DNA of 64,000 bases from Candidatus Berkelbacteria bacterium (GCA_037142675.1 JBAXAF010000004.1:326-64325), one strand, 5' to 3'; shown: positions 4,233-63,282, numbered from the stretch's first letter. The notes: generated by a model not told the origin, from the letters alone. Numbers and translations: made by a program.

Positions 4233-4402
4233 TTTTGTTTGGTATAAAATATCCACAGCATGAAGCTGTGTTATTTTTTAACGCTTTGTTTCATTTCTGT
4301 TTCTACCAGAAATGTTACTATTGGTCGCTCAATCATGGGTGGGTAGTCATGACTTTCACTTTCTTGTTATAATCTAGAAAACAACTAACATTTGGAGGCA
4401 AT

Positions 4403-4597
4403 ATGCCAGGAATCGAAAGTGGTCAAGGTGTTTATGGTAGCGATGTTACTCGGGAAGAAAATAAAGATTGGGCAGCAGGCAAAGGGGCCGAAGCAAATGC
4501 AAATGCAAATGAGTTGGCTAAGGGGTTGGGCAGGGAGAATCCTATTGCTCCAGAAGGACCAACACAGGATGAAGAGAGGTTGGATAAAGTCGCCTAA
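4403..4597 (+). CDS. Small hydrophilic hypothetical protein (64 aa)
   Basis: RBS ggagg 7 nt upstream; terminator hairpin 4612-4640; Ala/Asn/Glu-rich low-complexity sequence. Confidence 0.45.
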   Translation: MPGIESGQGVYGSDVTREENKDWAAGKGAEANANANELAKGLGRENPIAPEGPTQDEERLDKVA

Positions 4598-4642
4598 ATT
4601 AATAAGAAAATCAAAACTGAGCTCACCGGAGCTCTTTTTTGA

Positions 4643-4671
4643 TTGACAAAGAATGCTAAATCGTATATATT
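4643..4671 (+). promoter_or_regulatory. Near-consensus sigma70 promoter (TTGACA-17-TATATT)
   Basis: ttgacaaagaatgctaaatcgtatatatt read directly. Confidence 0.6.
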
Positions 4672-4698
4672 CAACGCGCATTAACCGAGCTTATGTGA

Positions 4699-5304
4699 GT
4701 GAGGTGCAAGGCTGTGGATTACCGTACCGCCATAGGCGTAGCTGCTGGCGCGATGATTCTGGCCGGGTATGCTGTATATATCATCGGGATGTTGCGTTCG
4801 GAGGGTAGCCCCCGGCCGGTGACGTGGAGCATCTGGGCGCTAACGGACCTGGCTATTCTTGGCAGCTTCTTGGTCAGCGGAGCTCATAGTGTCGGATGGA
4901 TGCAGTTGGGCACGACCGCCGGAAATGTGGCGGTCACAATTCTTTCGATAAGACGGGGGTTGTTTAGAGTCGGGCGGATTGATGTGGCATGCTTTCTGCT
5001 TGCATTTGCTGCAATCACTGCCCTTGTGATGTTTCATGACCCCGCAGCCACGCTTCTCTTCGGGTTAGCTTCAAAAACAATAGGCTTCATCCCAACAGGA
5101 CTGAAGTTGTGGTTCGCGATGAAGAACTTCAGGGCAGGTGATAGGGAGTTCTGGCCAACGTGGACGCTCTGGGCTGCTGCGGACATGGCAAGCATCTTCG
5201 CGGTTCAACATTTTGTGTCCATTGAGACGCTGGTCCCTGTGCAGTATAGTGCTCAATGCCTTCTAGTGCTTTATCTGAACAGCAAGATCCCCAAGTCCCC
5301 GTGA
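4699..5304 (+). CDS. GC-rich integral membrane protein, hypothetical (cassette A)
   Basis: 201 aa, multiple hydrophobic helices; terminator cccgtgacaaacgggg plus T-run at 5297-5323. Confidence 0.6.
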   Translation: MRCKAVDYRTAIGVAAGAMILAGYAVYIIGMLRSEGSPRPVTWSIWALTDLAILGSFLVSGAHSVGWMQLGTTAGNVAVTILSIRRGLFRVGRIDVACFLLAFAAITALVMFHDPAATLLFGLASKTIGFIPTGLKLWFAMKNFRAGDREFWPTWTLWAAADMASIFAVQHFVSIETLVPVQYSAQCLLVLYLNSKIPKSP

Positions 5305-5334
5305 CAAACGGGGCTTTTTTTATTGACTCACGAT

Positions 5335-5362
5335 TGACAAAGTATATACTTTTTGCTATAAT
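5335..5362 (+). promoter_or_regulatory. Sigma70-like promoter (TTGACA-16-TATAAT)
   Basis: ttgacaaagtatatactttttgctataat. Confidence 0.6.
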
Positions 5363-5432
5363 GCTCGTACACAGTAACGCGTAAATAGGCCGGGCCTGGG
5401 GGCCATCACAATTCCCAGCAGAGGACATAGAA

Positions 5433-6044
5433 ATGCCCAAGAGTCTCCGCGTCGTTCTGGTGGTTGTTGTGATGGTCCTGGCTAGCATGGCTGCGCACGC
5501 TGACGGCACGCTGTTCCAGCGCTTGGACATGGCTCGGGGCGCCGGGCCTTCGTTGACCACCGCTTGGCTCGATTCCTCGGGCCTCGAGTTGTGGTCGTTC
5601 TGCCAGCCGGACTTCCCGATGTACGAGTTGGGCAAGCTCTGGCCGGTCAAGGCCGACGAGGGCGACACCTTGCTTCTGGGAGGGTATGTCAGTTGGTGGG
5701 ACAAGGTCGACCAAGTCTTCCTGGAACCGTTCTGGGTGTACAACCACCCGCTTGACGGCGACTGGAAGATGGAAACCGGAGGTGGGGCTTACGTCCCTCT
5801 GAACGGTGGGCCCTGGGTCTTCTATACGTCCCAGGTGGCTCTGTCTCACCACGTGAGCAAGAACGTGCGCGCCGGGATCGCTGCCACCAACTGGTGGCAG
5901 GAAGGTGTCGGCAACAGTATCGCCATCGGTCCGAAGCTGAAGATCAGCGCTGGAGACACGTCGTGGCTGCTGCGTTACACCTTCGGTGTAGCCGGTGGAG
6001 CGCCCGATACCGCCCGCGTCGAGCTCAGCATCAAGCTGGACTGA
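5433..6044 (+). CDS. GC-rich secreted protein with signal peptide, OMP-like beta-rich (cassette B)
   Basis: MPKSLRVVLVVVVMVLASMAAHADG signal peptide; alternating aromatic/Gly pattern; terminator 6075-6112. Confidence 0.6.
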   Translation: MPKSLRVVLVVVVMVLASMAAHADGTLFQRLDMARGAGPSLTTAWLDSSGLELWSFCQPDFPMYELGKLWPVKADEGDTLLLGGYVSWWDKVDQVFLEPFWVYNHPLDGDWKMETGGGAYVPLNGGPWVFYTSQVALSHHVSKNVRAGIAATNWWQEGVGNSIAIGPKLKISAGDTSWLLRYTFGVAGGAPDTARVELSIKLD

Positions 6045-6118
6045 TGCTGAACACTGAGCAATGAACGAGTACAAGCGTCTGGCCGACTTCTGGTCAGGCG
6101 CTTTTTTAATTCAAATAA

Positions 6119-6907
6119 TTATTTCAGGTGATCCCAAATAAAATAAAACACAGCTCGCCAAGAATCGGCGATGTTTTTGTTTTCGTGAATCGACATATTC
6201 GAGTTCTTGTAGTCAAAGAGGACAAAAAGGTTATTGAAAATAACTATTGGTGCGGGAAACTCCTCTTTGTTAGGCATGTATTTAAGATTCGCAGGAGGTA
6301 AATTAAATCTTTCGACAATATAAGGATTGCGGATGTGTTCTTCAGGCGTTTTTCCGCGCTGACTTTTAGGTAAGATAGCTAGAATATTTACATCAAGCTT
6401 TTCAGCGGGCCTAACAAATTGTTTGAGAATTGGGTTTGATTCTGAGACAGTTTTGTACGAGTTCCCAAATATTAATACTTTGTTAAGTGGGGGTTTAAGC
6501 TCGGCGAATAATTGATAAAGTCGATCATAAAACTTTGTTATTTCATCAATTCCTCGATAATACTCCGTAATAGTTTGGCTTGTCACTCGATTATACTGTT
6601 CATCTATTTTTGGCAGTATTGAGCTAAGTTCCTGCTTTTTATTTGCCAATATTGACTCAAAAACAGACGGATCGGCGGGTTGATAAAGCGTTCTCTTGCC
6701 CTGCTCAATTGACAAGAGTAGTTTTTTTGAGATCAATCGATCGACATAATAATAAACAGCAGTTCTCTCAACGCCAGCGTTACGAGCTATCTCTGAAAAC
6801 GTTGCTTTGCCAAGTTCAACGGACGACAAATAAACCAAGACCTCAATTCGTTCTAGGCCAAGAGCTATCAACGGTTCGATGTCTTTTGAAGTGTCAAAAT
6901 ATTTCAC
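6119..6907 (-). CDS. TrmB-family HTH transcriptional regulator (paralog 1)
   Basis: N-terminal wHTH LGLERIEVLVYLSSVELGKATFSEIARNAGVERTAVYYYVDRL; low GC. Confidence 0.8.
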   Translation of the reverse strand: MKYFDTSKDIEPLIALGLERIEVLVYLSSVELGKATFSEIARNAGVERTAVYYYVDRLISKKLLLSIEQGKRTLYQPADPSVFESILANKKQELSSILPKIDEQYNRVTSQTITEYYRGIDEITKFYDRLYQLFAELKPPLNKVLIFGNSYKTVSESNPILKQFVRPAEKLDVNILAILPKSQRGKTPEEHIRNPYIVERFNLPPANLKYMPNKEEFPAPIVIFNNLFVLFDYKNSNMSIHENKNIADSWRAVFYFIWDHLK

Positions 6908-6966
6908 ATATCTATTATATCAATACTCCAAAACATGTCAAATATTTGGCAATAGTGTCTAAAGCA

Positions 6967-6995
6967 TTGACTAAAATAAGAATAAATGATACAAT
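6967..6995 (+). promoter_or_regulatory. Consensus sigma70 promoter TTGACT-17-TACAAT
   Basis: ttgactaaaataagaataaatgatacaat. Confidence 0.65.
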
Positions 6996-7080
6996 TCGGC
7001 GTTATGCTGAAGTCTCGGATTTTGGCATAAGGCAAAAAACACAAGGCTGGTTTGGTGCCTAACCAAACGGAGATAAATAG

Positions 7081-7674
7081 ATGATTAAGTTTCGCAACGC
7101 TGTTCTGGTGATGGTTGTGCTGGCGGATGTTTGCTCGGGTGTGCTGGCGCAAAGCGCCTTCATCCGCACTGAGGGTGCAGATGGTAAGGCACCGATGCAA
7201 ACGTTTGCCGCATGGGACGATACGTACGAAATCTGGCTCCAATCGTTCAACACCGATAGCTTCACTATTAGGGGTGGACCGCTCCAGAAGCTAGACAACG
7301 GGATGAAGTTGTCTGAGTGTTTGGCATGGACACCCAAAACTGGCGCGCTGGCGGTTAATGTCAACACCGGCAATGCCACGGTCTGCCAGAAGAGCAAGAC
7401 GTTCTGGGAGCTGGGCGCATATGCTCCGTTGAACGACGCGTCGAGTTGGGCGCTGGTGCTGTACGACGCTCGCCTCCTTGCACGGCTAACGCCCGAGCTG
7501 GCAATTGGTCCAGTCGCCTACGGCAAGTGGAGCGAGGGCGCCGGAAACGACTTCCTCTCCGCTGGCGTCGCCGTTGAGTACCGTGTGAAGGGCGGCTGTT
7601 TCTACGGCCGCTTGGCACGGAATCTCGTGTCTGATAAGAACGAGTTCCGGCTTCAATACGCCTTTGGCTTCTAG
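7081..7674 (+). CDS. GC-rich secreted OMP-like beta-barrel protein ending in aromatic F (cassette C)
   Basis: Signal peptide MIKFRNAVLVMVVLADVCSGVLAQSAF; C-terminus ...LQYAFGF (OMP C-terminal signature); terminator 7693-7733. Confidence 0.6.
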   Translation: MIKFRNAVLVMVVLADVCSGVLAQSAFIRTEGADGKAPMQTFAAWDDTYEIWLQSFNTDSFTIRGGPLQKLDNGMKLSECLAWTPKTGALAVNVNTGNATVCQKSKTFWELGAYAPLNDASSWALVLYDARLLARLTPELAIGPVAYGKWSEGAGNDFLSAGVAVEYRVKGGCFYGRLARNLVSDKNEFRLQYAFGF

Positions 7675-7747
7675 CCAACACAAGAACATCAATGCAAGCG
7701 CTGGGCCTTCGGGTCTGGCGCCTTTTTTTGTCCAAATTATGTAACCC

Positions 7748-7776
7748 TTGACAAACAAATATCACTAGGTTATAAT
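7748..7776 (+). promoter_or_regulatory. Consensus sigma70 promoter TTGACA-17-TATAAT
   Basis: ttgacaaacaaatatcactaggttataat. Confidence 0.65.
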
Positions 7777-7993
7777 TGCTCTACTATGGAATTCATACAT
7801 ATACAATCCATGCTCGGATACAAAATCAACCCAACTTTTCGTTGGGCCACCTTTAGTTTGTCTAACCGAGCTGATTCCTCATTTCATTATATAACGTGAT
7901 TTTTTAGAACTCATATATAACTTGAAGAACGTCTTGGTTAGCTAGACCAAGGCGTTTTTGTTTTAGCTATGTTCGTACACAATTTGAAAGGAA
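7777..7993 (+). promoter_or_regulatory. Long structured 5' leader with terminator-like hairpin; candidate riboswitch/attenuator
   Basis: Hairpins cccaacttttcgttggg and gaacgtcttggttagctagaccaaggcg followed by tttttgtttt; RBS aggaag before ATG. Confidence 0.4.
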
Positions 7994-9190
7994 GTGAGAA
8001 AGATGGCAAAAAAGACCGTGAGGTATTACCTGTTGTTGTCGTTGCTCTACCGATTTTCCAATACCTGCTTTGCCGCGACCTATGTAACATTTCTAATGAG
8101 CAGGGGAGGACTAAACCTGTTTCAGGTTAATATGGTCAATTTCATCTTCTTTGCGACGATGTTTTTGACCGAAATCCCGACCGGCGCCGTGGCCGACTGT
8201 TTCGGTCGCAAGCTGTCTTTTCTTATCTCTTGCTCGATTAACTGTGTTTCGTTGCTGGTGTATGCCCTGTCGCACACCTTCACTGGCTTTGCCACCGCCG
8301 AGGCAATGGGCGCAGTTGGGTCAACATTCTCGTCAGGCGCATTTCAGGCCTGGGTGGTTGATTCTCTTAACCACCACGGCTACCAGGAGGACTTTGGCAA
8401 GCTGTTCGCTCGCCAAAACCAGTTGGGCAACTTGGTCGGTATGGGTGCCGCCATCATTGGTGCACACCTGGCAACTATAAACCCGGCTTTCCCTTGGTTT
8501 CTGTCGGCTGCGTTTGTCTTCGCCACTGGTGTTGTCGCAATCTTTGTTATGAGGGAGGACTACCGGGAAAAAAGCAGTATCAATTTGTTGGCGACAGCCA
8601 AAGAGTTCGGCCGCAAGTTTGTGGTTAGCGCCCAAACAATCCGTGCTGGTGGGCCAGTAACACTAATGATGTTACTTGGACTGGTCTATTCCATTGGAGT
8701 CCAAGCCCCCAACATGCAGTGGCAGCCGTATTTCCGTAAGCACTTCGCCTCGGAAGCTGAATTGGGTTATTTGTGGGCTGGTGTCTCATTGGCGATCATC
8801 ATTGGCTCACAAATGTCAGCCATGATGCGTCGTGGGCCTGCGTTCGAGCGACTAGCGTTGATAGGAACCCAGGTTTCTATTGGCCTATTCATCGCGCTAG
8901 CGGGGATACAGTCGCCGTGGATGTTATCTGTTTTGTTTTACCTCATCCACGAGGCTGGGCGTGGGATGTTTTCACCGCTTAAGGATGCGTATCTCAACGA
9001 TGCCATCCAAAAGGAGGAGCGGGCAACCCTACTTTCCTGTGGTTCAATCTCTAGCCACATCGGTTCAATGGTTGGGCTAGTGATGTCTGGTCTTATGGCC
9101 AACAGGCTCTCAATCGCTCCCACCTGGATAGTGTCAGGGATTTTCCTTGTCGTCGGGACACTCGCAGTGTCTCGAATCAAGCGCACATGA
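7994..9190 (+). CDS. MFS-family transporter (cassette D)
   Basis: 398 aa, about 12 TM helices; GRK motif in loop 2-3; terminator gcggtctgc...gcagaccgc plus T-run at 9195-9228. Confidence 0.75.
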   Translation: MRKMAKKTVRYYLLLSLLYRFSNTCFAATYVTFLMSRGGLNLFQVNMVNFIFFATMFLTEIPTGAVADCFGRKLSFLISCSINCVSLLVYALSHTFTGFATAEAMGAVGSTFSSGAFQAWVVDSLNHHGYQEDFGKLFARQNQLGNLVGMGAAIIGAHLATINPAFPWFLSAAFVFATGVVAIFVMREDYREKSSINLLATAKEFGRKFVVSAQTIRAGGPVTLMMLLGLVYSIGVQAPNMQWQPYFRKHFASEAELGYLWAGVSLAIIIGSQMSAMMRRGPAFERLALIGTQVSIGLFIALAGIQSPWMLSVLFYLIHEAGRGMFSPLKDAYLNDAIQKEERATLLSCGSISSHIGSMVGLVMSGLMANRLSIAPTWIVSGIFLVVGTLAVSRIKRT

Positions 9191-9234
9191 CTCAGGCGGT
9201 CTGCTCCTCGCAGACCGCTTTTTTTGTCCCAAAT

Positions 9235-9990
9235 TTAGCCTTCGCCGACTTTTGCCTCGGTGGATTTCTCCCACAATAGAGTGTGGAAAATTTTCATTGC
9301 CTCGTATAGTTCTTTACTCTTAATAAGCATGCCAAAGTTCTCTTTTTGCGTGCTAAAAACACTAAGTTTTCCTGTGTCGTAGATTCCAATTCCAACCTCA
9401 ATTCTCATCCCATCTGGTCCCCATCGCAACTCTCGCAAGTACTCCAAGCCGTGTGATGATGTTTCATAGTTAATATCTGTATCTTTGTATCGAATAGTTT
9501 TGATAAATATTCCCTTTTCAATTCGAGCTTTGTCGATCTCGGCGATTGATCGTACCCCGCCAATCATTTGAGTTGCGCTCCCTGGCCAAATGTAGAGTGC
9601 CTCTTTTTTGCACTTCAACTCCTCGCGGATAACATTGCGCACCTGATCTGGCCCCTCAAAATAACTGACGCGTGGTTTGTGTGGGGTTAGATTAAATAAG
9701 TCTATAAAAGCCGGCAAACTATCTTTTAGTTTTGCCAATCTTTCATTCTCGAGCTCAATCAGGCGTTCTGGCGACTCAGCTTTGTAATTCATTCGGCCGT
9801 TTTTCTCGAACTTTGATATCAAACCCAGTTCAACTAGGTGATCAATAAAGTAATAAATTGATGTTCGTTTAATGCCGGCACGAGCAGCGATTGGAGTAAT
9901 GGTTGAACTGCCAAGCTCCAAAATAGCCAAGTAGACCTTGGCTTCCTTCTCGTCCAACCCAAATTTTACTAGTGTGTCCTCTTTGTTCAT
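9235..9990 (-). CDS. TrmB-family HTH regulator (paralog 2)
   Basis: FGLDEKEAKVYLAILELGSSTITPIAARAGIKRTSIYYFIDHL; start chosen at MNKEDTL (RBS gagga); ORF-track N-terminal 25 aa are GC-rich and atypical. Confidence 0.75.
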   Translation of the reverse strand: MNKEDTLVKFGLDEKEAKVYLAILELGSSTITPIAARAGIKRTSIYYFIDHLVELGLISKFEKNGRMNYKAESPERLIELENERLAKLKDSLPAFIDLFNLTPHKPRVSYFEGPDQVRNVIREELKCKKEALYIWPGSATQMIGGVRSIAEIDKARIEKGIFIKTIRYKDTDINYETSSHGLEYLRELRWGPDGMRIEVGIGIYDTGKLSVFSTQKENFGMLIKSKELYEAMKIFHTLLWEKSTEAKVGEG

Positions 9991-10156
9991 TCCTGTCATC
10001 CTCGGGCTTGCCTGCCCGCCTTTGGAGGGACCCGGGGATCCATTAATAGTTAAGACTTCGCACATATCGTCTAAAAAATCGTCGATAACACATTAATTCT
10101 AGCATAATTGGCACAAATTAGTCAAGTATTATTTGTCTAAATCATTGTCTAATATA

Positions 10157-10185
10157 TTGACAATATGCCAAATCAGTGATACAAT
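10157..10185 (+). promoter_or_regulatory. Consensus sigma70 promoter TTGACA-17-TACAAT
   Basis: ttgacaatatgccaaatcagtgatacaat. Confidence 0.65.
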
Positions 10186-10271
10186 GTGTTGTTACGATCG
10201 AAGTGGCAAACAAGCCAATCGCTCGTAAGGCAGATTACAACTTACGCCGGCGGGCTAACGCTAGGAATGAA

Positions 10272-10694
10272 ATGGATAACGATATTTGCGACTTTGGCTG
10301 TCCTGACGCCGTTGAGAACATCGCATTCAGTGGAAACACGTATTACGGCTTTGCTCGTTACGAAATCGCCACCGAGACCCGCGGGGGCATTCCTTACAAG
10401 ACTGAGGTTCGCGTCAACTATTTCCCCGTTGTTGATGGGCGCGTTCGGGTAGTAGATGTGGTTTTGATGCGATTCACCTGGGAGTCGTTTTACAAGACGC
10501 ATACGGTCGATGAAGCGCTGAAATCCAATTGGCCAGAAATATTGGCCGAGATGATCGCGGAGTCGCTGCCGGTTCGCATCGAGGAATTCTGCATCGCACG
10601 GCGCAAGAGTAGTGATCAGATGATACAGAATTTTAAGGAATGGCTGAAGTGTGAAAAGGGAATTGAGCTTTCGGAAGACCGCTCTGAACCGTAG
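10272..10694 (+). CDS. GC-rich hypothetical protein (operon E, gene 1)
   Basis: Start MDNDICDF with RBS aggaa; the ORF-track start 10176 would lie inside the promoter. Confidence 0.55.
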   Translation: MDNDICDFGCPDAVENIAFSGNTYYGFARYEIATETRGGIPYKTEVRVNYFPVVDGRVRVVDVVLMRFTWESFYKTHTVDEALKSNWPEILAEMIAESLPVRIEEFCIARRKSSDQMIQNFKEWLKCEKGIELSEDRSEP

Positions 10695-10719
10695 CAGGTT
10701 CGGAGCCGTTTCCGAGGGA
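10668..10719 (+). repeat. 52-nt hairpin-containing direct repeat, copy 1 (overlaps the 3' end of gene 1)
   Basis: ctttcggaagaccgctctgaaccgtagcaggttcggagccgtttccgaggga; about 92% identical to 11137-11188. Confidence 0.8.
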
Positions 10720-10756
10720 AATCAAGTGCTGGCGAGCCAAAACGCAAGGAAATAAC

Positions 10757-11131
10757 ATGAGTGGTACAGTTGACGATTTGATGGCAGCGCTTCGGATGAT
10801 CGACAGTCACTCGCAGCAGCTTGATGAAGAAAAAGAGACCCTGGCGTTGGCGCGGCGTGTCATCTCCGATCGTCACTTCCGGCAGCTGGTTCAGCGGCTG
10901 GAAACCGATCGGGTTGGATTGGCACGCGAGATCCTCGAAGCCGAGCAGATCCGCATCGACAACACCCCGATCGAAGATCTGTCGCTGTCGGTTCGGACAT
11001 ACAACGGCTTGAAGAAGAGTGGTATCAACACCCTCGGAGAGCTGGCTGAGTGCACGAAGGAGAAGTTGGCAGGCATCCGCAACTGGGGCCGCCGCTGCCA
11101 GGAAGAAGTAGATGAGATTCTGAAGAAATAG
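10757..11131 (+). CDS. Standalone RNA polymerase alpha-subunit C-terminal-domain-like protein
   Basis: IEDLSLSVRTYNGLKKSGINTLGELAECTKEKLAGIRNWGRRCQEEVDEILKK resembles the RpoA alpha-CTD helix-hairpin-helix. Confidence 0.6.
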   Translation: MSGTVDDLMAALRMIDSHSQQLDEEKETLALARRVISDRHFRQLVQRLETDRVGLAREILEAEQIRIDNTPIEDLSLSVRTYNGLKKSGINTLGELAECTKEKLAGIRNWGRRCQEEVDEILKK

Positions 11132-11136
11132 GAGTG

Positions 11137-11188
11137 CTTTCGGACGACCGCTCTGAACTGTAACAGGTTCGGAGCCGTTTCCGAGGGA
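11137..11188 (+). repeat. 52-nt direct repeat, copy 2
   Basis: ctttcggacgaccgctctgaactgtaacaggttcggagccgtttccgaggga. Confidence 0.8.
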
Positions 11189-11214
11189 GATAATCAGAAA
11201 GGTGGTTATGAAGT

Positions 11215-11625
11215 ATGTACATGTACCCTTTTGCATGGAGTGGCCAGGTATATAATCTGGGCGAAGGCGATGTCCAGATGCTGGTTGAGTTGTTGTGTGC
11301 AGGCCTAGACAAGGTGCTTGTAAACAACGATTACGAAGATGGCTCCAGGAAAGTGCGAATCTCGACTCACGACTATAAAAAGGCTAAATTCAACGACAAG
11401 CTGATCGAGCTCGAGTATACACTTCCCTGCAGGCATTTGCTTGTAGGACTGGGAAGTGGAGATTACCCGCGCTCCTTGCATCTTCCGCAAGCAATCGGTG
11501 GGGGGACCCTCGTCCGTAAGTCTCACGAGCCTGGCAAACCTATATACGTATGTCAGTTGGACATTGGAGACAGAAAGATAGAGCTGAAGGTGTGTTTCGT
11601 TGTGACTGAAGACAAGTTGAGATAG
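11215..11625 (+). CDS. GC-rich hypothetical protein (operon E, gene 3)
   Basis: RBS aaaggtgg; terminator ctccgggtcgtgattgattcggag plus T-run at 11660-11690. Confidence 0.55.
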   Translation: MYMYPFAWSGQVYNLGEGDVQMLVELLCAGLDKVLVNNDYEDGSRKVRISTHDYKKAKFNDKLIELEYTLPCRHLLVGLGSGDYPRSLHLPQAIGGGTLVRKSHEPGKPIYVCQLDIGDRKIELKVCFVVTEDKLR

Positions 11626-14203: not shown

Positions 14204-14206
14204 ATA

Positions 14207-56124: not shown

Positions 56125-56154
56125 TTGACAAAATATGACGAGTTTTGCTATAAT
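56125..56154 (+). promoter_or_regulatory. Consensus promoter TTGACA-18-TATAAT for TrmB paralog 5
   Basis: ttgacaaaatatgacgagttttgctataat. Confidence 0.6.
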
Positions 56155-56193
56155 ATAGTCGTATATTAGTGACGAAAATAAGAGTAGTAAAAA

Positions 56194-56928
56194 ATGGAAA
56201 CTTTGGAGATTCTAAAATCAATTGGATTAAATGACAATGAAAGCAAGGTTTACCTAGCTGTCCTTGAACTCGGTGCATCGACGGTTTTGCCCATCTCAAA
56301 AAAGTCCGGAATAAAACGGACCTATTGTTACGATATTTTGGAAAGCTTGCTAAAAAAGGGTTTTGTTAGTCACTTTAGTAAAAATGGTCGCCGTCGCTAC
56401 CTGGCTGCTGACCCAAAGCAAATCGAGGCGTTGTTAGAAAATAAATTAAACCGATTTTCAGAAGCTTTGCCACAACTGCGGTCAATTTATAATTCATCGC
56501 CAGAAAAACCAACAATTCGATTTTTTGAGGGTAAGGAAATCAAAAATATTTATGAAATGTTGCCGTCAGCGAAATACATTGATTCCATAGCCTCCCCTGA
56601 GTACATTTACCAATATCTTGGCAATTACTTTGATGAAATTGTAAAATTAATAGCTAAAAAGAAGGTAGCTGTTCGGGAAATTGTGCCAGAGAAAAATAAG
56701 GATGCTGGCTATATTAAGAATTTTCAAAAGCCAGACGAGGAGCTTAGATTTTTACCAAAAGAAGTCCAGTTGTCGACGGATATAATAATTTTTGATGACA
56801 AGGTTGCACTGATTTCATTTGCAAAAAAGGTTCACGCGGTGTTAATTGAAAGTTCGAGTATTGTGGAGACTCAGCGCTATATGTTTGATTTGATCTGGCA
56901 GATGGCAAAAAGTCCGTCTTCGAGGTAG
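56194..56928 (+). CDS. TrmB-family HTH regulator (paralog 5)
   Basis: IGLNDNESKVYLAVLELGASTVLPISKKSGIKRTYCYDILESL. Confidence 0.8.
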   Translation: METLEILKSIGLNDNESKVYLAVLELGASTVLPISKKSGIKRTYCYDILESLLKKGFVSHFSKNGRRRYLAADPKQIEALLENKLNRFSEALPQLRSIYNSSPEKPTIRFFEGKEIKNIYEMLPSAKYIDSIASPEYIYQYLGNYFDEIVKLIAKKKVAVREIVPEKNKDAGYIKNFQKPDEELRFLPKEVQLSTDIIIFDDKVALISFAKKVHAVLIESSSIVETQRYMFDLIWQMAKSPSSR

Positions 56929-56948: not shown

Positions 56949-57707
56949 ATGTTTTGGCAGAAGGAAGAAAACCGAGGGTCTTGGGCGGCTTACACTGATG
57001 TGATGAAAATTCACCCAATTTCTCGTGTTACCGCCGATAAGGTTTTGGTTTTGGCGCCACATCCAGATGACGATGTTTTAGGTTGCGGAGGACTCTTGGC
57101 CGAGCTATCTGAGGCTGGTGCAAAAATCAAAGTGGTTTATTTTACTGATGGTTCTCGTGGCAACCGCGAGGCTAAGTTTTCTGAAAATTTAATCGCACAG
57201 AGGGAAGAAGAATCGGTTGAAGCTGGAAAAGTTTTAAAAATCTCTGAACAGAAATTTCTTCGGCTACCCCATAATTCCTTGAAGTCTAGTATTGAGTTGG
57301 CGGCGATTATCCGCAAAGAAATTGAGTTCGACAAACCTGACTTAATTTTAGCACCCTCATTTGAGGAACCGCACCCAGACCATTTAGCGGTTTTGGAGGC
57401 ACTAAATTTAGGTTTAAAAAATTATTCTGAAGGTTTAAATATTTGGTTGTATGAAGTTTTTGGAACCGGGCGGTTAAATCGCCTGTTTATTATAGATGAT
57501 TTTGTTGAAGTGAAAACAGAAGCTCTTAAGTGCCACAAAAGTCAGTACAAAATTAAAAAATATGACGAGGCAATATTGTCCTTGAATAAATTTCGGGCAC
57601 TGTCGGCTGGAATTGGAAATTATGCCGAGGGTTATTATTCCACCGGTCCGCGAACATTTCAAAAATTATTTGAGTTTTACCAGCGTCATCACGAAAGTAG
57701 AATTTGA
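56949..57707 (+). CDS. PIG-L/LmbE-family N-acetylglucosaminyl deacetylase (paralog 1)
   Basis: VLAPHPDDDVLGCGG zinc-binding motif. Confidence 0.8.
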   Translation: MFWQKEENRGSWAAYTDVMKIHPISRVTADKVLVLAPHPDDDVLGCGGLLAELSEAGAKIKVVYFTDGSRGNREAKFSENLIAQREEESVEAGKVLKISEQKFLRLPHNSLKSSIELAAIIRKEIEFDKPDLILAPSFEEPHPDHLAVLEALNLGLKNYSEGLNIWLYEVFGTGRLNRLFIIDDFVEVKTEALKCHKSQYKIKKYDEAILSLNKFRALSAGIGNYAEGYYSTGPRTFQKLFEFYQRHHESRI

Positions 57708-57740
57708 GGAGTTATCATTTCTAAGGTATTAAAAATCGTT

Positions 57741-58364
57741 TTGACAGGTGGGGCTTGTGGCGGAAAAACCACGACTATCGAAGCTGTCAAAAAAGATCTT
57801 GGTGATCGAGTTATTGTCGTCCCCGAAGTTGCATCTCAACTTATTCGGCCACTAGAAAAAGGAGGAGTCGGAATACCGGGCGTTGATATCGAGTGGTCGC
57901 AGGAATGGCAGGATGAATTACAACAACAAATTCTAGTAAAACAATTAAATGATGAAAACATATCGATTAGTGAAGCCGAAATGTTTGAAGGGCCGTCCAT
58001 CGTACTTTGCGACAGAGGAGTTCTCGACGGGGCCGTTTATATGTCTGGTGGGCTAGAAGAGTTTCTCGAAAAGTTTCATTTGGAGTACAGCGCTTGTATT
58101 TCGCGATACGATGCGATTATTCACCTCAATTCATTGGCTGTTGATGATCCGGAAAAATTCATCGAGTTTTTTAAATCAAACTCAGCAAGACATAGACAAG
58201 TTGACAAGGCGGCGTTACTTGATAAAGCGATTTTTGAGGTCTGGAAAGGCCACCAGAATCACCTGCGAGTTGCTTCGACTGAAGAGATGGAAGAAAAAAT
58301 TGAATTGGTGCTATCAGAAATACGAAAGGAATTAGGGCGGGTTAATGCAGAATTGGGGGGCTGA
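57741..58364 (+). CDS. P-loop NTPase (AAA_28 / nucleoside-kinase-like)
   Basis: TTG start; LTGGACGGKTTT Walker A. Confidence 0.6.
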   Translation: MTGGACGGKTTTIEAVKKDLGDRVIVVPEVASQLIRPLEKGGVGIPGVDIEWSQEWQDELQQQILVKQLNDENISISEAEMFEGPSIVLCDRGVLDGAVYMSGGLEEFLEKFHLEYSACISRYDAIIHLNSLAVDDPEKFIEFFKSNSARHRQVDKAALLDKAIFEVWKGHQNHLRVASTEEMEEKIELVLSEIRKELGRVNAELGG

Positions 58365-58428
58365 AATTGGTAGCGAGGGCAAGCTTGGGGTTATTTGAGT
58401 TTTATCAACGCCATCATGAAAGCAAAAT

Positions 58429-59184
58429 ATGAGCATTAAAAAACAATTTCTGTCGGCATTTAGAACTATGAATTTTGCTGCCGCTGAGGCTGGTTGGCGA
58501 ATTTTCACCAGTGGCGCCGATTTTAAAGTGGTGGAAGAATTACCAAATAATGATATTTTAATTATTGCCCCGCACCCGGATGATGAGATTTTTGCTTGCT
58601 CCGGAGTAATATCTAGAGTAAAAAAGGATCAAAAAATTAAAATAGCCTACATTTTTTCTGGAGATAAACTATCGCGATCAGAGCGAGCTAGTGCGAGAGA
58701 AGAAGAGTCAAAAAGTGCAGTAGAACAATCTGAAAATCTCGAGCAAATATTTTGTCGTCAACCAGACAATTCGATTGTGGACAAAGAAACAATTTATGAT
58801 CTTTCGACTATTATCTTGGAAATGAAACCAGGGATTATTCTAACGCCGAACTTTTCTTGCCCAAATGACGACCATCGTGAGGCGACGAAGGCAATTGTTG
58901 AGGCATTAAAACTGGCAAAAATAAAAGGCCAAGATCTCAAAGAAATTTCTATTTGGCTTTACGGCGTTTGGGGGCCATTACCGTATTTTAATCGATTGTT
59001 GAAAGTTGACGTAGATAAAAAAGAAAAGGCAATGGAGAAGTTCTTATCGCAACATAAGGACCGAAATTATATTAAGGCTATAAAATCGCTCGATGATTAC
59101 TATGGCGAAATTTACGGTTTAGCTTACTCCACCGAAGCCTTTTTCGCCGTGCCGGCAGATTTGCTGCTCAAGCTCTATAAATAA
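58429..59184 (+). CDS. PIG-L/LmbE-family deacetylase (paralog 2)
   Basis: IIAPHPDDEIFACSG. Confidence 0.8.
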   Translation: MSIKKQFLSAFRTMNFAAAEAGWRIFTSGADFKVVEELPNNDILIIAPHPDDEIFACSGVISRVKKDQKIKIAYIFSGDKLSRSERASAREEESKSAVEQSENLEQIFCRQPDNSIVDKETIYDLSTIILEMKPGIILTPNFSCPNDDHREATKAIVEALKLAKIKGQDLKEISIWLYGVWGPLPYFNRLLKVDVDKKEKAMEKFLSQHKDRNYIKAIKSLDDYYGEIYGLAYSTEAFFAVPADLLLKLYK

Positions 59185-59225
59185 ATTGAACTAATAAAAA
59201 ACTCTGGCGCCATGCCAGAGCCGTG

Positions 59226-59681
59226 TCATCCTCCATTTTTCTTGGCGATGTTCTTTTTCCGGCCAGATCCTTGGAGTGAAGCCATCAGCAACTTTTCATC
59301 ATCGGAGAGGTATCGGTTGCAGGCCTCGGCGATGCTGTGCTGGGTGCACTTCAGACGTTTGTGCATTTTGGCGGCAGACGGGTAGATGTTGGCTTTCAAG
59401 CGCCAGCGGACTGCGACCAAAACGCGTTTGGTTTTGTCGCAGGTATGACGTCCGCGTTGTCGTTTTGGCTTTTGGGGCCACTTGGTCTTTCTTTTTCTCT
59501 TCCGCTCTGCTGGCGCCAGATCCCTGGTCAAGATCTGCCCGATCCTTGTCCCGGTTACCCCGTAGTGCTTCCCCAGTTCCTCGTTGGTTTGGTACTTGCG
59601 TTCACCGCGGATCATCGCTCGAACTCGGGCGATCAGATCCTTGGTGTCAACTTTAGTTTCGGCCAAACTGACCACCTCCAT
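59226..59681 (-). CDS. GC-rich small DNA-binding protein with sigma-70 region-4-like HTH and basic tail
   Basis: EELGKHYGVTGTRIGQILTRDL; KRKRKTKWPQKPKRQRGR; promoter TTGACC-17-TATATT at 59694-59722, so the mRNA is (near-)leaderless; start 59681 or 59690. Confidence 0.5.
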   Translation of the reverse strand: MEVVSLAETKVDTKDLIARVRAMIRGERKYQTNEELGKHYGVTGTRIGQILTRDLAPAERKRKRKTKWPQKPKRQRGRHTCDKTKRVLVAVRWRLKANIYPSAAKMHKRLKCTQHSIAEACNRYLSDDEKLLMASLQGSGRKKNIAKKNGG

Positions 59682-59769
59682 CGTTCTCATGACAATATAG
59701 CGGAAAAAACAACTCCGGTCAATCAGCGGATTGATAATTAGGCACAAATATGGTAAAATTTTCTAGTAA

Positions 59770-59977: not shown

Positions 59978-59978
59978 T

Positions 59979-60055
59979 GGCCCGGTCGTCTAGTGGCCTA
60001 GGATACTTGGTTCTCATCCAAGAGATCATGGGTTCGACTCCCATCCGGGCTACCA
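59979..60055 (+). tRNA. tRNA-Glu (anticodon CTC)
   Basis: ggcccggtcgtctagtggcctaggatacttggttctcatccaagagatcatgggttcgactcccatccgggctacca; hairpin plus T6 terminator at 60058-60090. Confidence 0.8.
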
Positions 60056-60112
60056 TGAAAAGTGCATCACTTCGGTGATGCTTTTTTCATGGTAAATGGA
60101 AGTCGAACGGGA

Positions 60113-60208
60113 AGGGGTCGGGAAACGGGAGTTTCCCGCAGAGGAAGATAATAGAAACCGTGAGTTTCTATAAGCCGAAGGCGTGTGAGCCTCCCATCCG
60201 GGCTACCA
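60113..60208 (+). repeat. tRNA-linked structured element, copy 2 (ends in an exact copy of the tRNA-Glu 3' 18 nt)
   Basis: ggggtcgggaaacgggagtttcccg...atagaaaccgtgagtttctat...ctcccatccgggctacca; terminator ctgaagttttgcttcag plus T-run at 60213-60238. Confidence 0.8.
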
Positions 60209-60271
60209 AAAAATTCTGAAGTTTTGCTTCAGGATTTTTTGTTTTGATCAAATTGAGCTAGAATAGAGTGG

Positions 60272-61771
60272 ATGAAAAAATTTTTTCAGGCGCCTAATTT
60301 TAGAAGTTGGCAGTTTTGGCTAAAGATTTTTTTGGTCGTTCTAATTATTGCTGGCGGGATCGCTGGTATATTGTTGATTAAAAAACACCGAGTAGCGGCA
60401 CCAGCCGCTGAGATTAAAGCTCCTGTTGAAGTTGCTGTTACCCCAATTGCTCCACCAGAAGAAGCAAAAAAAGCTGTTATCGCTGCGCCTCCTAAGGTTA
60501 AGACTTCTGGAAAAACTTCAACTAAGGCCAATTCAGATGGATCAAAGACGGTTACATCTGCCACTGGACCAGTTAATTCTGCCAACACAGCTGTTGCTGC
60601 CGCGGCTGGGCCTTCGGCTGGTATTGCCGGTATTCATTATATCGACCAAACAGGTTCGCATGCTGATTTGGGTGATCAACTTAAAACGTATATGTCGAAT
60701 AACTTATTAGTTAAAGGCGAAGTTAGCAGTATGTACTCGATAATTCTGCAAAACGCCGGAGACACCGGCTGGGCCGGACTTTATTCCGGGTCGTATAATC
60801 AAGACGCGAACGGCCAAATAACTTCCGCCTGGGGCTATATAACGCTAAACAGCTACTATTATGAAGGTAATCCATACTTCCTTGACTACATGAAACTAAT
60901 TTTGTCGCACGAATATGGCCACCACTACTCCTTGTATTACAAATGGATAGTTTGGCAGATTCCTTCTGGTCAACGCTTCCCCGATTCTTATTATTCCGTT
61001 CGGCCGCTGACAAAGTCAGGAACAGCTCCTGATTACTCACTGGGTTGGGCCAACTGCGATGCGGAAATAATTGCGGAGGATTACTCTTATCTCTATTCCG
61101 GTTATGGCTATCATGGCATGGCAGCGACCTACGGTTATCCATCTGCTGGGACAAAAACTTGGTTGGTTAATGAGCCAGCCGGGTCATCTGCTTCAGCGCC
61201 AGCGTCAGACAGCGCACCAACAGTCTCAATTACCGCACCAGCCAGTGGCGCAACTGTTTCTGGAACGGTGCCATTTTCAGCCACGGCTTCTGATGATAAT
61301 GGTGTAACAAAGGTGAGCTTTTACATTGACAACAATTTATTAGTTGAAGACTCCGTCGCACCATATGAAACGTCATTCAATTCTGCAAGTTATGGCAATG
61401 GAGTTCATTCTTTGCGGGCTAGAGCAACTGACACGGCTGGACAAACTGCTGATTCGACAGTCTCTATTATCATTAATAACGCGACGACCGACACGGAAAA
61501 CCCGACGGTTACCATTGGCGACCCAGCTGACAATCCTCATGCTTGGGCAAATGGTAATTTACACATTGCAGTTACGGCAACAGACAACGTTGCGGTGCAG
61601 AAAATCGAGATCTATATTAATGATCAACTAGCTCTAACTGAGAACTCAGGATCAGTTTCTGCTGTTTGGAATTATAATGATGCTCCAGCCGGAACCTACA
61701 CACTAAAAGCAAAAGCCTACGATGCTTCCGGCAACACCGCCGAAACTAGCATTGTGGTAAACAAAAGTTAG
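60272..61771 (+). CDS. Membrane-anchored putative zinc metalloprotease (HExxH) with C-terminal Ig-like repeats
   Basis: N-terminal TM; Pro/Ala-rich linker; LSHEYGHH; two repeated modules of about 90 aa. Confidence 0.6.
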   Translation: MKKFFQAPNFRSWQFWLKIFLVVLIIAGGIAGILLIKKHRVAAPAAEIKAPVEVAVTPIAPPEEAKKAVIAAPPKVKTSGKTSTKANSDGSKTVTSATGPVNSANTAVAAAAGPSAGIAGIHYIDQTGSHADLGDQLKTYMSNNLLVKGEVSSMYSIILQNAGDTGWAGLYSGSYNQDANGQITSAWGYITLNSYYYEGNPYFLDYMKLILSHEYGHHYSLYYKWIVWQIPSGQRFPDSYYSVRPLTKSGTAPDYSLGWANCDAEIIAEDYSYLYSGYGYHGMAATYGYPSAGTKTWLVNEPAGSSASAPASDSAPTVSITAPASGATVSGTVPFSATASDDNGVTKVSFYIDNNLLVEDSVAPYETSFNSASYGNGVHSLRARATDTAGQTADSTVSIIINNATTDTENPTVTIGDPADNPHAWANGNLHIAVTATDNVAVQKIEIYINDQLALTENSGSVSAVWNYNDAPAGTYTLKAKAYDASGNTAETSIVVNKS

Positions 61772-62517
61772 ATCTTTTTTCCGATTCCCCAAAGTATGTC
61801 AAAAATATTTTTAAAAACCTTAACCAGGTTTTTATTTTTGATTTCAATCACCATTGGCTCTGTTGCCGAATGGAGAACTAAAATGTCATCGCCAAAAATA
61901 TTGAAGTTTCCCAAGTCAGCCATCTTTTTTTCGATTAGCCGATATTCATATAACTTTGGAAGACTATTTTTTAATTTCATTTCGAAATCGTTTTCATTAA
62001 AAATCAACATTTGCCATTTAATCATTCTTTCTTGTTGGATTTTCAGAAATTTGCTGGTTAGTTTTCCCATATGCTCTTGCCAAAGAGGCCCGATTGACCC
62101 GGCGATAAAATCTGTTGTTCCAGTTGGCAACTTAGAATAAGCATCCAGCCAAAATCGGCGATAGGACTCCAGCCCTTCATAAATGGTTATTTCAGGTGAT
62201 TCTGCTTGGATCATCTTTTTTAATTCAGGCACTAAGGTTTTTGCTAGTTGAAATTCCTCAGCAGCGATATCAAGCAACTTTTCTGGATCAAGCGATTGGA
62301 AGTACTTAATTTTTGATTTCTCAAAACTAAAGACTAGTTTTTTGCTAATAAGTTTTTTTAATGATTCATAAACCACACTGCGATGCAGCTGAGTTTTTTC
62401 AATGATTTTTCCTGCGGAAGTTGTACCGATTTCTAAAAGGGCAGTGTAAGTTTTGGCTTCACTGCTAGTTAGGTGTAATTGTTCCAAGCGCGATCTAATT
62501 TGCTCGTTAATTGCCAT
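61768..62517 (-). CDS. TrmB-family HTH regulator (paralog 6)
   Basis: LHLTSSEAKTYTALLEIGTTSAGKIIEKTQLHRSVVYESLKKL. Confidence 0.8.
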   Translation of the reverse strand: MAINEQIRSRLEQLHLTSSEAKTYTALLEIGTTSAGKIIEKTQLHRSVVYESLKKLISKKLVFSFEKSKIKYFQSLDPEKLLDIAAEEFQLAKTLVPELKKMIQAESPEITIYEGLESYRRFWLDAYSKLPTGTTDFIAGSIGPLWQEHMGKLTSKFLKIQQERMIKWQMLIFNENDFEMKLKNSLPKLYEYRLIEKKMADLGNFNIFGDDILVLHSATEPMVIEIKNKNLVKVFKNIFDILWGIGKKI

Positions 62518-62600
62518 AATTTTTTATAAGTTTATTTTACTTTACTAAAAATATCTTATCACAAAACAATTAGATAATCAATATATGTTGTCGAAAATAG

Positions 62601-62629
62601 TTGACAAATAAAATAATCGATGATAGGAT
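62601..62629 (+). promoter_or_regulatory. Promoter TTGACA-17-TAGGAT
   Basis: ttgacaaataaaataatcgatgataggat. Confidence 0.5.
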
Positions 62630-62685
62630 GTTCTTTGCATGGGTTTGGGAGTTAGGAAACACCAAAAAATTCTGGAGGCGCTTCG

Positions 62686-63180
62686 ATGAACGCCAATACT
62701 GATAACAGCAAGCATTTGCTGCTATCTGAAATACTCAGAGGGGAAGATGTTGTTGGGTTGGCGGCTCGGTATCGGCGACTCAATTTTTCACAGCGGTCGT
62801 CAGTGAATGGCGAAGTCATTGATTTGTTTGCCAGTTATGTCGACGGTTTGAAAACTACCGGCGATGTTACAAACAAACCAATCGGTCGTGATGCATCGTA
62901 CAACATCTTGCTTTTCATTGAGCAAATCGCTGATTCTGGGATCCTGCTGAACCTCAGATTTAGAGACCGAATTGGCAAACTGGCGCGGTACGTAGCGCTC
63001 TGGGCTGGACAACAAAAACCAGGTTACCGACCGCATCAGGTTGTCAGCTTGGTGTTGCGGATAGGGTTTGCCGCCGATGTGCATGAGGTTTGGGCTGTCG
63101 CCGAAAGACTACTGACCCATCAGGACTTAGGCCTATTGGTGATTGAGGCCATGTCGAAAAAATGGCAGGCCGAACAGTGA
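62686..63180 (+). CDS. Moderately GC-rich hypothetical protein (cassette P)
   Basis: 164 aa; terminator gcggggagagaaaatctccccgc plus T-run at 63198-63228. Confidence 0.5.
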   Translation: MNANTDNSKHLLLSEILRGEDVVGLAARYRRLNFSQRSSVNGEVIDLFASYVDGLKTTGDVTNKPIGRDASYNILLFIEQIADSGILLNLRFRDRIGKLARYVALWAGQQKPGYRPHQVVSLVLRIGFAADVHEVWAVAERLLTHQDLGLLVIEAMSKKWQAEQ

Positions 63181-63282
63181 TGTGTGGAAATTGCTCTGCG
63201 GGGAGAGAAAATCTCCCCGCTTTTTTTGTTAGAACATCAAAAAAATATCACTAAAACTGGCGATTGATAAAAATTAATTAGT

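Follow-up and report, generated by a model that had tools for sequence, protein, structure and literature searches.

Composition and architecture of the high-GC units

The 64,000-nt stretch of DNA analysed here (GCA_037142675.1, JBAXAF010000004.1:326-64325; hereafter the window) is a natural, origin-proximal part of the chromosome (recF-dnaN-oriC-dnaA and onward) of an uncultured bacterium of the Patescibacteria or Candidate Phyla Radiation (CPR), labelled Candidatus Berkelbacteria by NCBI. Its backbone has a GC content of approximately 40%, and the subject of this study is a set of GC-rich, single-gene or few-gene transcription units that lie in the spacers of this backbone. A cluster of DnaA boxes was located at 2105-2430, beside recF-dnaN-dnaA. 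The backbone further encodes rnpA-yidD-yidC, a T4SS-pilin/T2SSE cluster, dnaE, rpmA, rplS, gltX, and mraY, and this content (T4SS-pilin, T2SSE, and core genes) is typical of CPR bacteria. A competence-type pilus/ComF cluster was also encoded within the window, and an Rfam scan of the whole window at gathering threshold returned six tRNAs and nothing else.

The GC profile along the window stepped repeatedly from approximately 0.40 up to 0.50-0.61. A two-state hidden Markov model (HMM) using 50-nt bins placed 16.3 kb, or 25% of the window, in a high-GC state whose mean GC content was 0.543, compared with 0.403 for the remainder. GC content at third codon positions (GC3) was 0.52-0.80 in 19 open reading frames (ORFs) belonging to 13-14 transcription units and 0.31-0.45 in 46 other genes, with zero overlap between the two ranges (Mann-Whitney p = 7e-10). 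The encoded proteins differed as well: the combined fraction of Phe, Tyr, Met, Ile, Asn, and Lys (FYMINK) was 0.23 in the high-GC set and 0.315 elsewhere (p = 3e-7), a poverty expected of genes that have long evolved in GC-rich genomes. The sharp contrast in composition between units and neighbours, which had been claimed in a preliminary description of the window, was therefore confirmed by the windowed GC profile, the HMM, and GC3 as real bimodality.

That description had counted about 16 GC-rich cassettes (A to P, with the leader of gltX among them). Thirteen of these (A-J, L, O, and P) were real high-GC coding units, but K, the gltX leader, and N differed in kind. F, which had been taken as one cassette, was indeed high in GC but comprised three adjacent units rather than one operon. 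The features are listed below with their predicted products; promoters were scored as matches out of 12 to the consensus TTGACA-N16-18-TATAAT and, like the terminators, are sequence predictions.

4643-5320, + strand: unit A; promoter 4643-4671 (11/12), ORF 4714-5304, terminator 5297-5320; multi-pass membrane protein without a family; GC 0.54, GC3 0.61
5334-6110, + strand: unit B; promoter 5334-5362 (12/12), ORF 5433-6044, terminator 6073-6110; secreted beta-rich protein; GC 0.62, GC3 0.80
6967-7730, + strand: unit C; promoter 6967-6995, ORF 7081-7674, terminator 7698-7730; secreted beta-rich protein with the C-terminus ...AFGF; GC3 0.70
7748-9227, + strand: unit D; promoter 7748-7776 (12/12), transporter of the major facilitator superfamily (MFS) 8003-9190, terminator 9194-9227; GC3 0.60
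10157-11690, + strand: E array; promoter 10157-10185, leader of about 80 nt 10192-10271, ORFs E1 10272-10694, E2 10757-11131, and E3 11215-11625, terminator 11658-11690; E2 is the C-terminal domain of the RNA polymerase alpha subunit (alpha-CTD) alone, as a stand-alone protein
15360-19625, - strand: F block, comprising the three units F1, F2, and F3-F4
18685-19503, - strand: F1, divergent FabI-like short-chain dehydrogenase/reductase; promoter 19579-19551, terminator 18661-18645
16920-18578, - strand: F2, orphan of 552 amino acids (aa); promoter 18636-18609, terminator 16908-16885
16259-16798 and 15424-16293, - strand: F3 and F4, respectively; terminator at approximately 15395-15366
22388-23105, + strand: unit G; promoter 22388-22416, ORF 22497-23051, terminator 23065-23103; secreted Arg/Pro/Gln-rich protein
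30458-31619, - strand: unit H; promoter 31619-31591, ORF 30707-31546 with a weak match to a terpene-cyclase domain, GC-rich tail, terminator 30479-30458
32455-34259, - strand: unit I; orphan I1 33331-34137, divergent ParA/MinD-type ATPase I2 32494-33270, terminator 32480-32455; GC3 0.52-0.55
36514-38040, + strand: unit J, adjoining tRNA-Ser; -35 box at 36514, DnaA 36598-37995, terminator at approximately 38012-38040
50960-51625, - strand: unit L; promoter 51625-51598 (11/12), ORF 50960-51556; secreted beta-rich protein; GC3 0.56
59200-59722, - strand: unit O, adjoining tRNA-Gln and tRNA-Glu; promoter 59722-59694, ORF 59226-59666, terminator 59222-59200; very basic protein; GC3 0.65
62601-63230, + strand: unit P; promoter 62601-62629, orphan ORF 62686-63180, terminator 63198-63230; GC3 0.52
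49297-50897, + strand: K insertion; 472-aa ORF 49430-50848 with its own promoter
52749-52940: gltX leader; promoter 52749-52777, structured GC-rich leader of about 110-130 nt, terminator 52869-52905 before the gltX start
55517-56076, - strand: unit N; promoter 56076-56048 (10/12), bidirectional terminator 55547-55517; a 28-aa hydrophobic peptide (55870-55956) and a 59-aa ORF

The products of B and C were distant paralogues with 28% identity. K had a backbone-like GC3 (0.37), yet the amino-acid composition of its product was of the GC-rich type. With a GC content of approximately 0.48, N was a borderline member of the set; its 28-aa peptide, MEILNLVIVVLGIIIGLFAMYFMLSLCS, is strongly hydrophobic and resembles a small membrane toxin or membrane peptide.

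Promoters matching the consensus at 10 or more positions were tallied before approximately 13 of the 14 cassette units, compared with approximately 6 of the 27 backbone units whose spacer was usable. Matches of 11-12/12 preceded A, B, the leader of D, E, and L, three regulator genes of the TrmB family (TrmB1, TrmB3, and TrmB5, described below), and the genes for HSP20, a PDDEXK protein, and an HTH-Fic pair, and no core operon in the window. Perfect 12/12 promoters were found four times, twice before cassettes and twice before TrmB genes. GC-rich hairpins followed by T-runs were predicted to terminate at least 12 of the 14 units. The earlier statement that every cassette carries a near-consensus promoter and a terminator thus held for most units; J, with a perfect -35 box and a poor -10 box, was the exception among the promoters, and near-consensus promoters were enriched at cassettes but not exclusive to them.

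Near-consensus promoters and clean terminators around ORFs of foreign composition look designed, and an engineered construct or an assembly chimera had accordingly been suggested. Exact-protein look-ups recovered the window sequence in NCBI metagenome-assembled genome (MAG) GCA_964526775.1 and in ENA assemblies of several samples; Logan assemblies of runs SRR7053514 and SRR7053317 also contained it, as did a JGI lake metagenome (3300021473). All of these independent copies were 100% identical to the window over whichever cassette junctions they spanned. Megablast of positions 4400-24400 against plasmids and Escherichia coli genomes gave no match. In addition, orthologous cassettes of diverged relatives had co-diverged with the backbone under purifying selection, and J showed gradual compositional drift. 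The identical natural assemblies and the lack of plasmid or E. coli matches at 4400-24400 therefore exclude such an origin for practical purposes, and we regard it as extremely improbable.

Two further noncoding features were observed. The leader of D is a low-GC segment of approximately 180 nt that ends in a terminator-like hairpin (7925-7959) just 5' of the ribosome-binding site of the MFS gene and lies within a block approximately 83% identical to a relative (L096). Neither this leader nor that of gltX matched a T-box or another Rfam family in the whole-window scan at gathering threshold; the D leader could act as an attenuator or riboswitch or give rise to a small RNA. Between the rpmA terminator and rplS, a noncoding stretch of approximately 490 nt (48130-48620, + strand) had a GC content of 0.56 and a predicted fold more stable than shuffled sequences (z = -4.3 on the + strand and z = -2.8 on the - strand). 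It matched no Rfam family even in a permissive rescan (E <= 1) and is a candidate for a large structured RNA of no known family.

Origin of the units and their turnover among relatives

We consider it likely that the 13-14 autonomous high-GC units (19 ORFs, approximately 16 kb) were acquired horizontally from GC-rich bacteria and settled, in the manner of phage morons, in the spacers between conserved genes. The clearest indication of a source came from J, which encodes a DnaA in addition to that of the origin region. Its product matched both the AAA+ domain III (PF00308, 4.8e-60) and the DNA-binding domain IV (PF08299, 7.1e-23) of DnaA, and residues 10-463 aligned end to end with a DnaA structure (PDB 8btg, E = 3.5e-95), while identity to the window's own DnaA was only 31-33%. 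J was 90% identical to a gene of Berkelbacteria ELA704 and 65% identical to a gene of a Patescibacteria MAG (L018). Identity to DnaA of Armatimonadia was 63-65%, and that to many other Armatimonadota was 48-55%; the L018 copy was 77-80% identical to Armatimonadia sequences. A neighbour-joining tree placed the CPR copies of J inside the Armatimonadia dnaA clade.

The genomic surroundings of the J-type gene differed between the two groups. On Armatimonadota contigs they were uniformly 58-67% GC, whereas in the three CPR loci the gene formed an island of 55-61% GC within a backbone of 40-44% GC. Of the 80 loci fetched, 73 contained homologues of dnaN. Polarised synonymous third-position changes on four CPR branches were strongly biased, with GC-to-AT:AT-to-GC ratios of 10:2, 13:1, 31:2, and 16:0 (70 vs 5 in total), and GC3, which was 0.83-0.91 in Armatimonadia, had fallen to 0.81 in the L018 copy and to 0.66 in that of the window. 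The nesting in the tree and the excess of GC-to-AT changes therefore indicate transfer from Armatimonadia to CPR bacteria with amelioration still ongoing. From these comparisons, J is a full-length second DnaA that was horizontally acquired from Armatimonadia and is still drifting toward the composition of the recipient. Its dN/dS (the ratio of nonsynonymous to synonymous divergence) of 0.12-0.21 shows that it has remained functional. Synonymous divergence (dS) of J between the window and ELA704 (L016) was 0.23, two- to four-fold lower than in the backbone genes tested (0.53-1.0), which suggests that a J allele was exchanged between these lineages after their split.

The search for donors of each cassette thus succeeded for J and gave none for the other units among their database homologues; for those units, we infer a foreign origin. 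F2 had 13 remote homologues among 1.84 billion representatives. Donor assignment with third-order Markov k-mer models (backbone, Armatimonadota, and Acidobacteriota) was discarded, as it put J in the wrong phylum and tracked GC content only.

Relatives of the window were recovered through cassette homologues and one backbone gene, and their comparison revealed variable occupancy of the same spacers. The 4.3-kb F block lies in the spacer between GH1 and DUF7544 genes; this site was empty (approximately 20-160 nt) in six relatives (L096, L101, L102, L103, L106, and L107), and in ELA704 and L181 it held a single FabI-like gene with 53% identity and saturated dS. TrmB2 and the E array were absent from L096, with 27 nt in their place, and TrmB2 was present in L181. 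G was absent from ELA704 (74-nt gap), and L102 had a 38%-identical allele with a GC content of 0.64 at the same site. The 4.8-kb block H-TrmB3-I-TrmB4 was missing from L102 and L018, and L096 carried two private high-GC genes after B.

Shared units had diverged to different extents, but in every case further than the genes beside them. The A allele of L096 was only 38% identical, compared with 89% for the adjacent dnaA; D was 60% identical to its L096 copy, and B and C were 80-82% identical to their counterparts, with 70-97% for flanking backbone proteins. dN/dS was approximately 0.2 in cassettes, about threefold higher than in the backbone (0.01-0.08); between the window and L096, it was 0.19 for C and 0.06 for TrmB1. 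dS was saturated for the alleles of A, D, and the FabI-like gene. Presence and absence of units at the same sites among close relatives, together with saturated dS, therefore indicate replacement rather than vertical descent. On this basis, B, C, and J are old residents, A, D, the FabI-like gene, and G have been replaced by divergent alleles, and F2-F4, H, and I are private to the lineage. Syntenic orthologues in related genomes, which the preliminary description had named as the observation that would speak against its view, thus existed for some units and clearly not for others.

A backbone-GC module also differed in location: an HTH_17-Fic gene pair lies beside L in the window (51635-52377) and between an HSP20 gene and a ComF-like gene in L018 (5683-6392), and this module therefore also moves between sites.

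Several of these comparisons bear on the alternative that the units are native CPR genes whose GC-rich codons are kept by selection (for instance, for the tuning of translation or for the structure of the mRNA) or through biased gene conversion. B had two database homologues besides itself (82% and 60% identity), both on low-GC contigs, and the former came from a Berkelbacteria relative with conserved synteny. Wherever a check was possible, close homologues of E2 and the FabI-like gene were named or placed in Patescibacteria. GC3 was nearly equal within orthologue pairs (0.80/0.79 for B, 0.70/0.71 for C, and 0.64/0.66 for the FabI-like gene), and homologues of the FabI-like gene formed high-GC islands in three different CPR backbones. 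Maintenance of a native composition is, however, at odds with J, which is nested within Armatimonadia and whose GC-to-AT excess means decay rather than maintenance. The amino-acid composition of the units is also of the GC-rich type, and variable site occupancy with saturated dS for A, D, and the FabI-like gene indicates replacement. We therefore judge native origin to be quite unlikely.

Insertion, expression, and proposed control of the units

Some units were flanked by duplications of the 3' end of the upstream gene. K was bracketed by identical 65-nt copies (49297-49361 and 50833-50897, 100% identity) of the rplS 3' end with its terminator, and the K ORF therefore ends with the last codons of ribosomal protein L19. 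The duplication flanking E2 comprised 56 nt (93% identity). For the block of I and TrmB4, the last 43 nt of TrmB4 repeated the 3' end of TrmB3 (32409-32451 vs 35061-35103, 77% identity). A further case, at backbone GC, was the following insertion.

57741-58364, + strand: AAA_28 gene, within an insertion of 57666-58433 with 43-nt direct repeats at 57666-57708 and 58391-58433 (84% identity)

Five cassettes had originally been credited with such duplications; those of K, E2, and the I block were real, that of the F block was only approximately 11 nt, and the AAA_28 case had not been listed. Apart from these units, the 3' end of tRNA-Glu (60038-60060) was duplicated 153 nt downstream (60191-60213, 23 nt), with two hairpins between the copies, and resembles what an old integration at a tRNA gene would leave behind. 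Two candidate observations were abandoned. A motif, ATTTTGAAT, shared by the left junctions of F and G was dropped as an insertion motif because it lies 3' of one unit but 5' of the other, and a 1,531-nt Logan contig holding only K was rejected as a circular form, being a k=31 graph product between the two 65-nt repeats.

The repeats, the moron-like architecture, and the occurrence of different units in the same hotspots would fit cargo that circulates among CPR cells on a phage, plasmid, or small circular element not yet sampled, with an element-encoded recombinase elsewhere in the genome. Direct repeats of 43-65 nt flank K, E2, and the AAA_28 gene, the tRNA-Glu 3' end is duplicated, and the low dS of J between the window and ELA704 (0.23 vs 0.5-1.0 in the backbone) suggests later exchange. 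Moreover, an alpha-CTD-only protein 52% identical to E2 was encoded at 6045-6431 of a 29-kb contig (L183; Logan SRR21912360) with a GC content of 0.33 that also codes for DNA ligase, IS605 TnpA and TnpB, and a UvrD helicase; this phage- or element-like contig hints that alpha-CTD-only proteins may travel on mobile elements. Other searches did not favour such a pool. The Pfam tables, which span window position 1 to the contig end except for an unlisted segment of approximately 16.9-17.3 kb inside F2 (itself without a Pfam match), contained no tyrosine or serine recombinase, integrase, or transposase, and no terminal inverted repeats were found around the units. No meaningful PHROG match was obtained for the ten cassette proteins tested, phage tblastn with K gave no match, IMG/VR contained no close relatives of E2, F2, K, or I1, and the gene tables of the window listed no phage structural or replication genes. 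The repeats also vary from site to site, copying the local target rather than a common element end. A circulating cargo pool is thus, in our estimation, unlikely.

The E array has an organisation of its own, with hairpin repeats at the following positions.

10667-10722 and 11136-11191, + strand: hairpin repeats of the E array

The hairpin is imperfect (GACCGCTCYGA...TTCGGAGC), one copy lies behind each ORF, and the terminator of the array resembles a third, diverged copy. L181 has kept E2 together with the promoter, the leader, and both repeats, and it has unrelated ORFs in place of E1 and E3; approximately 95 nt (the promoter and a 70-nt leader) were identical between the window and L181. The E locus is thus a conserved expression platform with exchangeable ORFs and the sole integron-flavoured part of the window. 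An integron-like cassette array without canonical attC, as proposed initially, would account for one promoter and leader serving three ORFs, each followed by a hairpin, and for the exchange of E1 and E3. However, no IntI-type recombinase, attI, or R''/R' core sites were present, the hairpin was confined to the E locus, and no attC-like repeat was common to the units, which otherwise have their own promoters and terminators and face both ways. We consider an integron-like system very unlikely. The recombinases for which a search had been advised were likewise missing from the Pfam tables, over the span given above.

Beside the units, the window encodes six TrmB-family paralogues at backbone GC.

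6119-6941, - strand: TrmB1; promoter 6941-6914 (12/12); divergent from C
9235-10125, - strand: TrmB2; promoter 10125-10096; divergent from E
31626-32442, + strand: TrmB3; promoter 31626-31654 (11/12); divergent from H and convergent with I
34333-35094, + strand: TrmB4
56125-56928, + strand: TrmB5; promoter 56125-56154 (12/12); divergent from N
61768-62607, - strand: TrmB6; divergent from P

Their mutual identity was 21-37%. All six passed the threshold of the N-terminal winged-helix family PF01978 (42.8-63.2 bits vs a gathering value of 25.6), and their C-terminal region of approximately 170 aa gave no family match. Five of the six had a high-GC neighbour (P = 0.036; six of six counting N), from which most were divergently oriented. 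The divergent TrmB spacers were 94-100% conserved, whereas adjacent coding sequences were approximately 82% identical or replaced outright; the spacer between TrmB1 and C, for example, was 94% identical to L096, compared with approximately 82% for the flanking coding sequence. Full-text searches of the literature found no paper on Patescibacteria or CPR bacteria mentioning TrmB.

These features suggest how such units may persist. In each predicted unit, one to three ORFs stand between a strong sigma-70-type promoter and an intrinsic terminator, and with these two signals of its own the unit could be expressed without disturbing its neighbours. The units make up the flexible genome here: at the same few intergenic sites they come and go or are exchanged for divergent alleles, with DNA uptake and recombination between conserved flanks probably driving turnover among related populations. 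Insertions tend toward the 3' boundary of the upstream gene, of which several appear to have duplicated 43-65 nt, and integration may have occurred by a single crossover (Campbell-type) or site-specifically, from circular DNA with short target identity. Local TrmB repressors, divergent from conserved promoter/operator spacers, would likely restrain the strong promoters. The units are probably now at differing stages of drift toward the AT-rich composition of the recipient.

Several points weigh against this account of horizontally acquired units. A donor was demonstrated for J only, and the case for a foreign origin of B, the FabI-like gene, E2, and F2 consists of nucleotide and amino-acid composition. 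The transfers were not uniformly recent, as diverged relatives carry B, C, and J in syntenic positions and these units have co-diverged with the backbone; of the massive recent horizontal gene transfer (HGT) into hotspots proposed initially, transfer itself was upheld by the nesting of J and by sites empty or refilled in relatives, but its recency failed for these three units. Horizontal transfer alone does not predict that acquired genes have stronger consensus promoters than native ones. No recombinase to which the 43-65-nt duplications might be ascribed was found in the Pfam tables over the span given above, and no relative lacking K confirms it as an insertion. Finally, the association with TrmB genes is only modestly significant, and repression of the units is a proposal.

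The backbone itself contained further features. AT-rich palindromic elements of approximately 125 nt lie in its intergenic spacers, with arms made of three or four heptamers NNNCTAA (e.g., CTAAATTCTAATATCTAA).

762-880, 3883-3914, 12087-12207, 20580-20686, 29696-29799, 35805-35829, 38768-38881, 40931-41030, and 42111-42240: palindromic elements

The pattern CTAANNNCTAANNNCTAA matched 29 times, compared with 0.22 expected. Two of the window copies were half-elements, the element was also found in ELA704, and Logan contigs broke exactly at these elements. The NDK-MraY spacer held a degenerate palindromic copy in the window and a TrmB gene in L018. In addition, dnaE (42855-46421, - strand) is an intact ORF of 1188 aa in the window, and the ENA copy of the contig has a 1-nt indel in dnaE, with the gene called as two (458 and 730 aa); the difference stems either from faulty assembly or from polymorphism in one of the two records.

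Products, implications, and comparison with known systems

Searches of the cassette proteins against Pfam, NCBIfam, PHROGs, and PADLOC were mostly empty and gave no defence-system or phage assignment; family matches were limited to the MFS transporter, alpha-CTD, the divergent FabI-like protein, the divergent ParA, and DnaA. Products of A, B, C, D, G, and L were predicted to be secreted or membrane-bound, and those of informational type were DnaA, the E2 alpha-CTD, the I2 ParA, and O. The suggestion that B and C are outer-membrane barrels is a guess from the signal peptide, predicted strands, and the ...AFGF end of C; an AlphaFold2 model of B was unusable (predicted local distance difference test score 33, from a three-sequence alignment).

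The combination of secreted or membrane proteins with host-type informational proteins suggests functions in contact with a host cell. CPR bacteria, or Patescibacteria, make up a large share of bacterial diversity, and to our knowledge the host and the means of interaction are unknown for most of their lineages, Berkelbacteria included. A more speculative extension, which we hold to be doubtful, is that the high-GC units form a toolkit captured by episymbiotic Berkelbacteria from an Armatimonadia host (the DnaA, the alpha-CTD, the ParA-type ATPase, and secreted barrel-like and membrane proteins), strongly promoted, gated by TrmB, rapidly exchangeable, and serving interaction with that host or its manipulation. 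If true, the cassettes would identify the hitherto unknown host of Berkelbacteria, and the conserved scaffolds of regulator, promoter, leader, and hairpin with swappable ORFs, together with the 43-65-nt duplications, would point to an undescribed, recombinase-free mode of cassette exchange. Full-text searches of the literature found no report linking Patescibacteria to Armatimonadota hosts.

Irrespective of this extension, J represents a polarised case of the capture of a whole dnaA from Armatimonadia that is kept under purifying selection in three CPR lineages, and it gives a concrete pointer to a donor or host that can be tested. Moron-like units account for a quarter of this origin-proximal region, which extends a concept of phage genomics to a streamlined cellular genome. 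The TrmB paralogues with their highly conserved divergent promoter spacers may constitute a dedicated control layer, and the 43-65-nt duplications of target 3' ends are insertion scars that call for a mechanism. On the practical side, such abrupt GC islands can lead to the mis-binning of CPR contig segments or to their removal as suspected contaminants.

Among known systems, phage morons, a concept of Hendrix and Juhala, are defined by their own promoter and terminator, deviant GC content, hotspots with different units, and residence in phages (PMC2920897). The present units resemble them as self-contained promoter-ORF-terminator modules between conserved genes, with deviant GC content, variable presence, and common hotspots (PMC2920897). 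In contrast to morons, they reside in a cellular core chromosome, with dnaA, rnpA, yidC, rplS, gltX, and dnaE as neighbours. They are also denser (approximately 25% of 64 kb), are paired with TrmB regulators, and gave no phage homologues.

Likeness to integron cassettes was limited to the E array, in which ORFs with a downstream hairpin repeat follow a single promoter and are exchanged. The array differs from integrons by the lack of IntI, attI, and an attC consensus and by a hairpin found at a single locus, and the other units are transcribed independently in both directions.

Transfer RNA genes are the classical targets of integrative elements that leave a duplicated target 3' end. The window shares with them direct repeats of the upstream 3' end (65 nt for K, 56 nt for E2, 43 nt for the AAA_28 gene, and 23 nt for tRNA-Glu), but here most targets encode proteins, each insert is a single gene of 0.5-1.5 kb with no accompanying recombinase, and the repeat is specific to each site.

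HGT and genomic islands in Patescibacteria are already described, with up to 13% of genome length ascribed to HGT (PMC12455944). Features of classical islands were seen in the position of J by tRNA-Ser and of O by tRNA-Gln and tRNA-Glu and in the 23-nt tRNA-Glu duplication, but there was no integrase and most units lie away from tRNAs. The likeness to the Patescibacteria islands thus consists of atypical, acquired DNA in a streamlined CPR genome, of the tRNA-adjacent positions of J and O, and of detectable drift (PMC12455944). By contrast with those islands, the DNA considered here is distributed as single-gene units over many spacers without an integrase, it includes a full dnaA with Armatimonadia as the donor, and its regulatory scaffolds are conserved while the ORFs are swapped.

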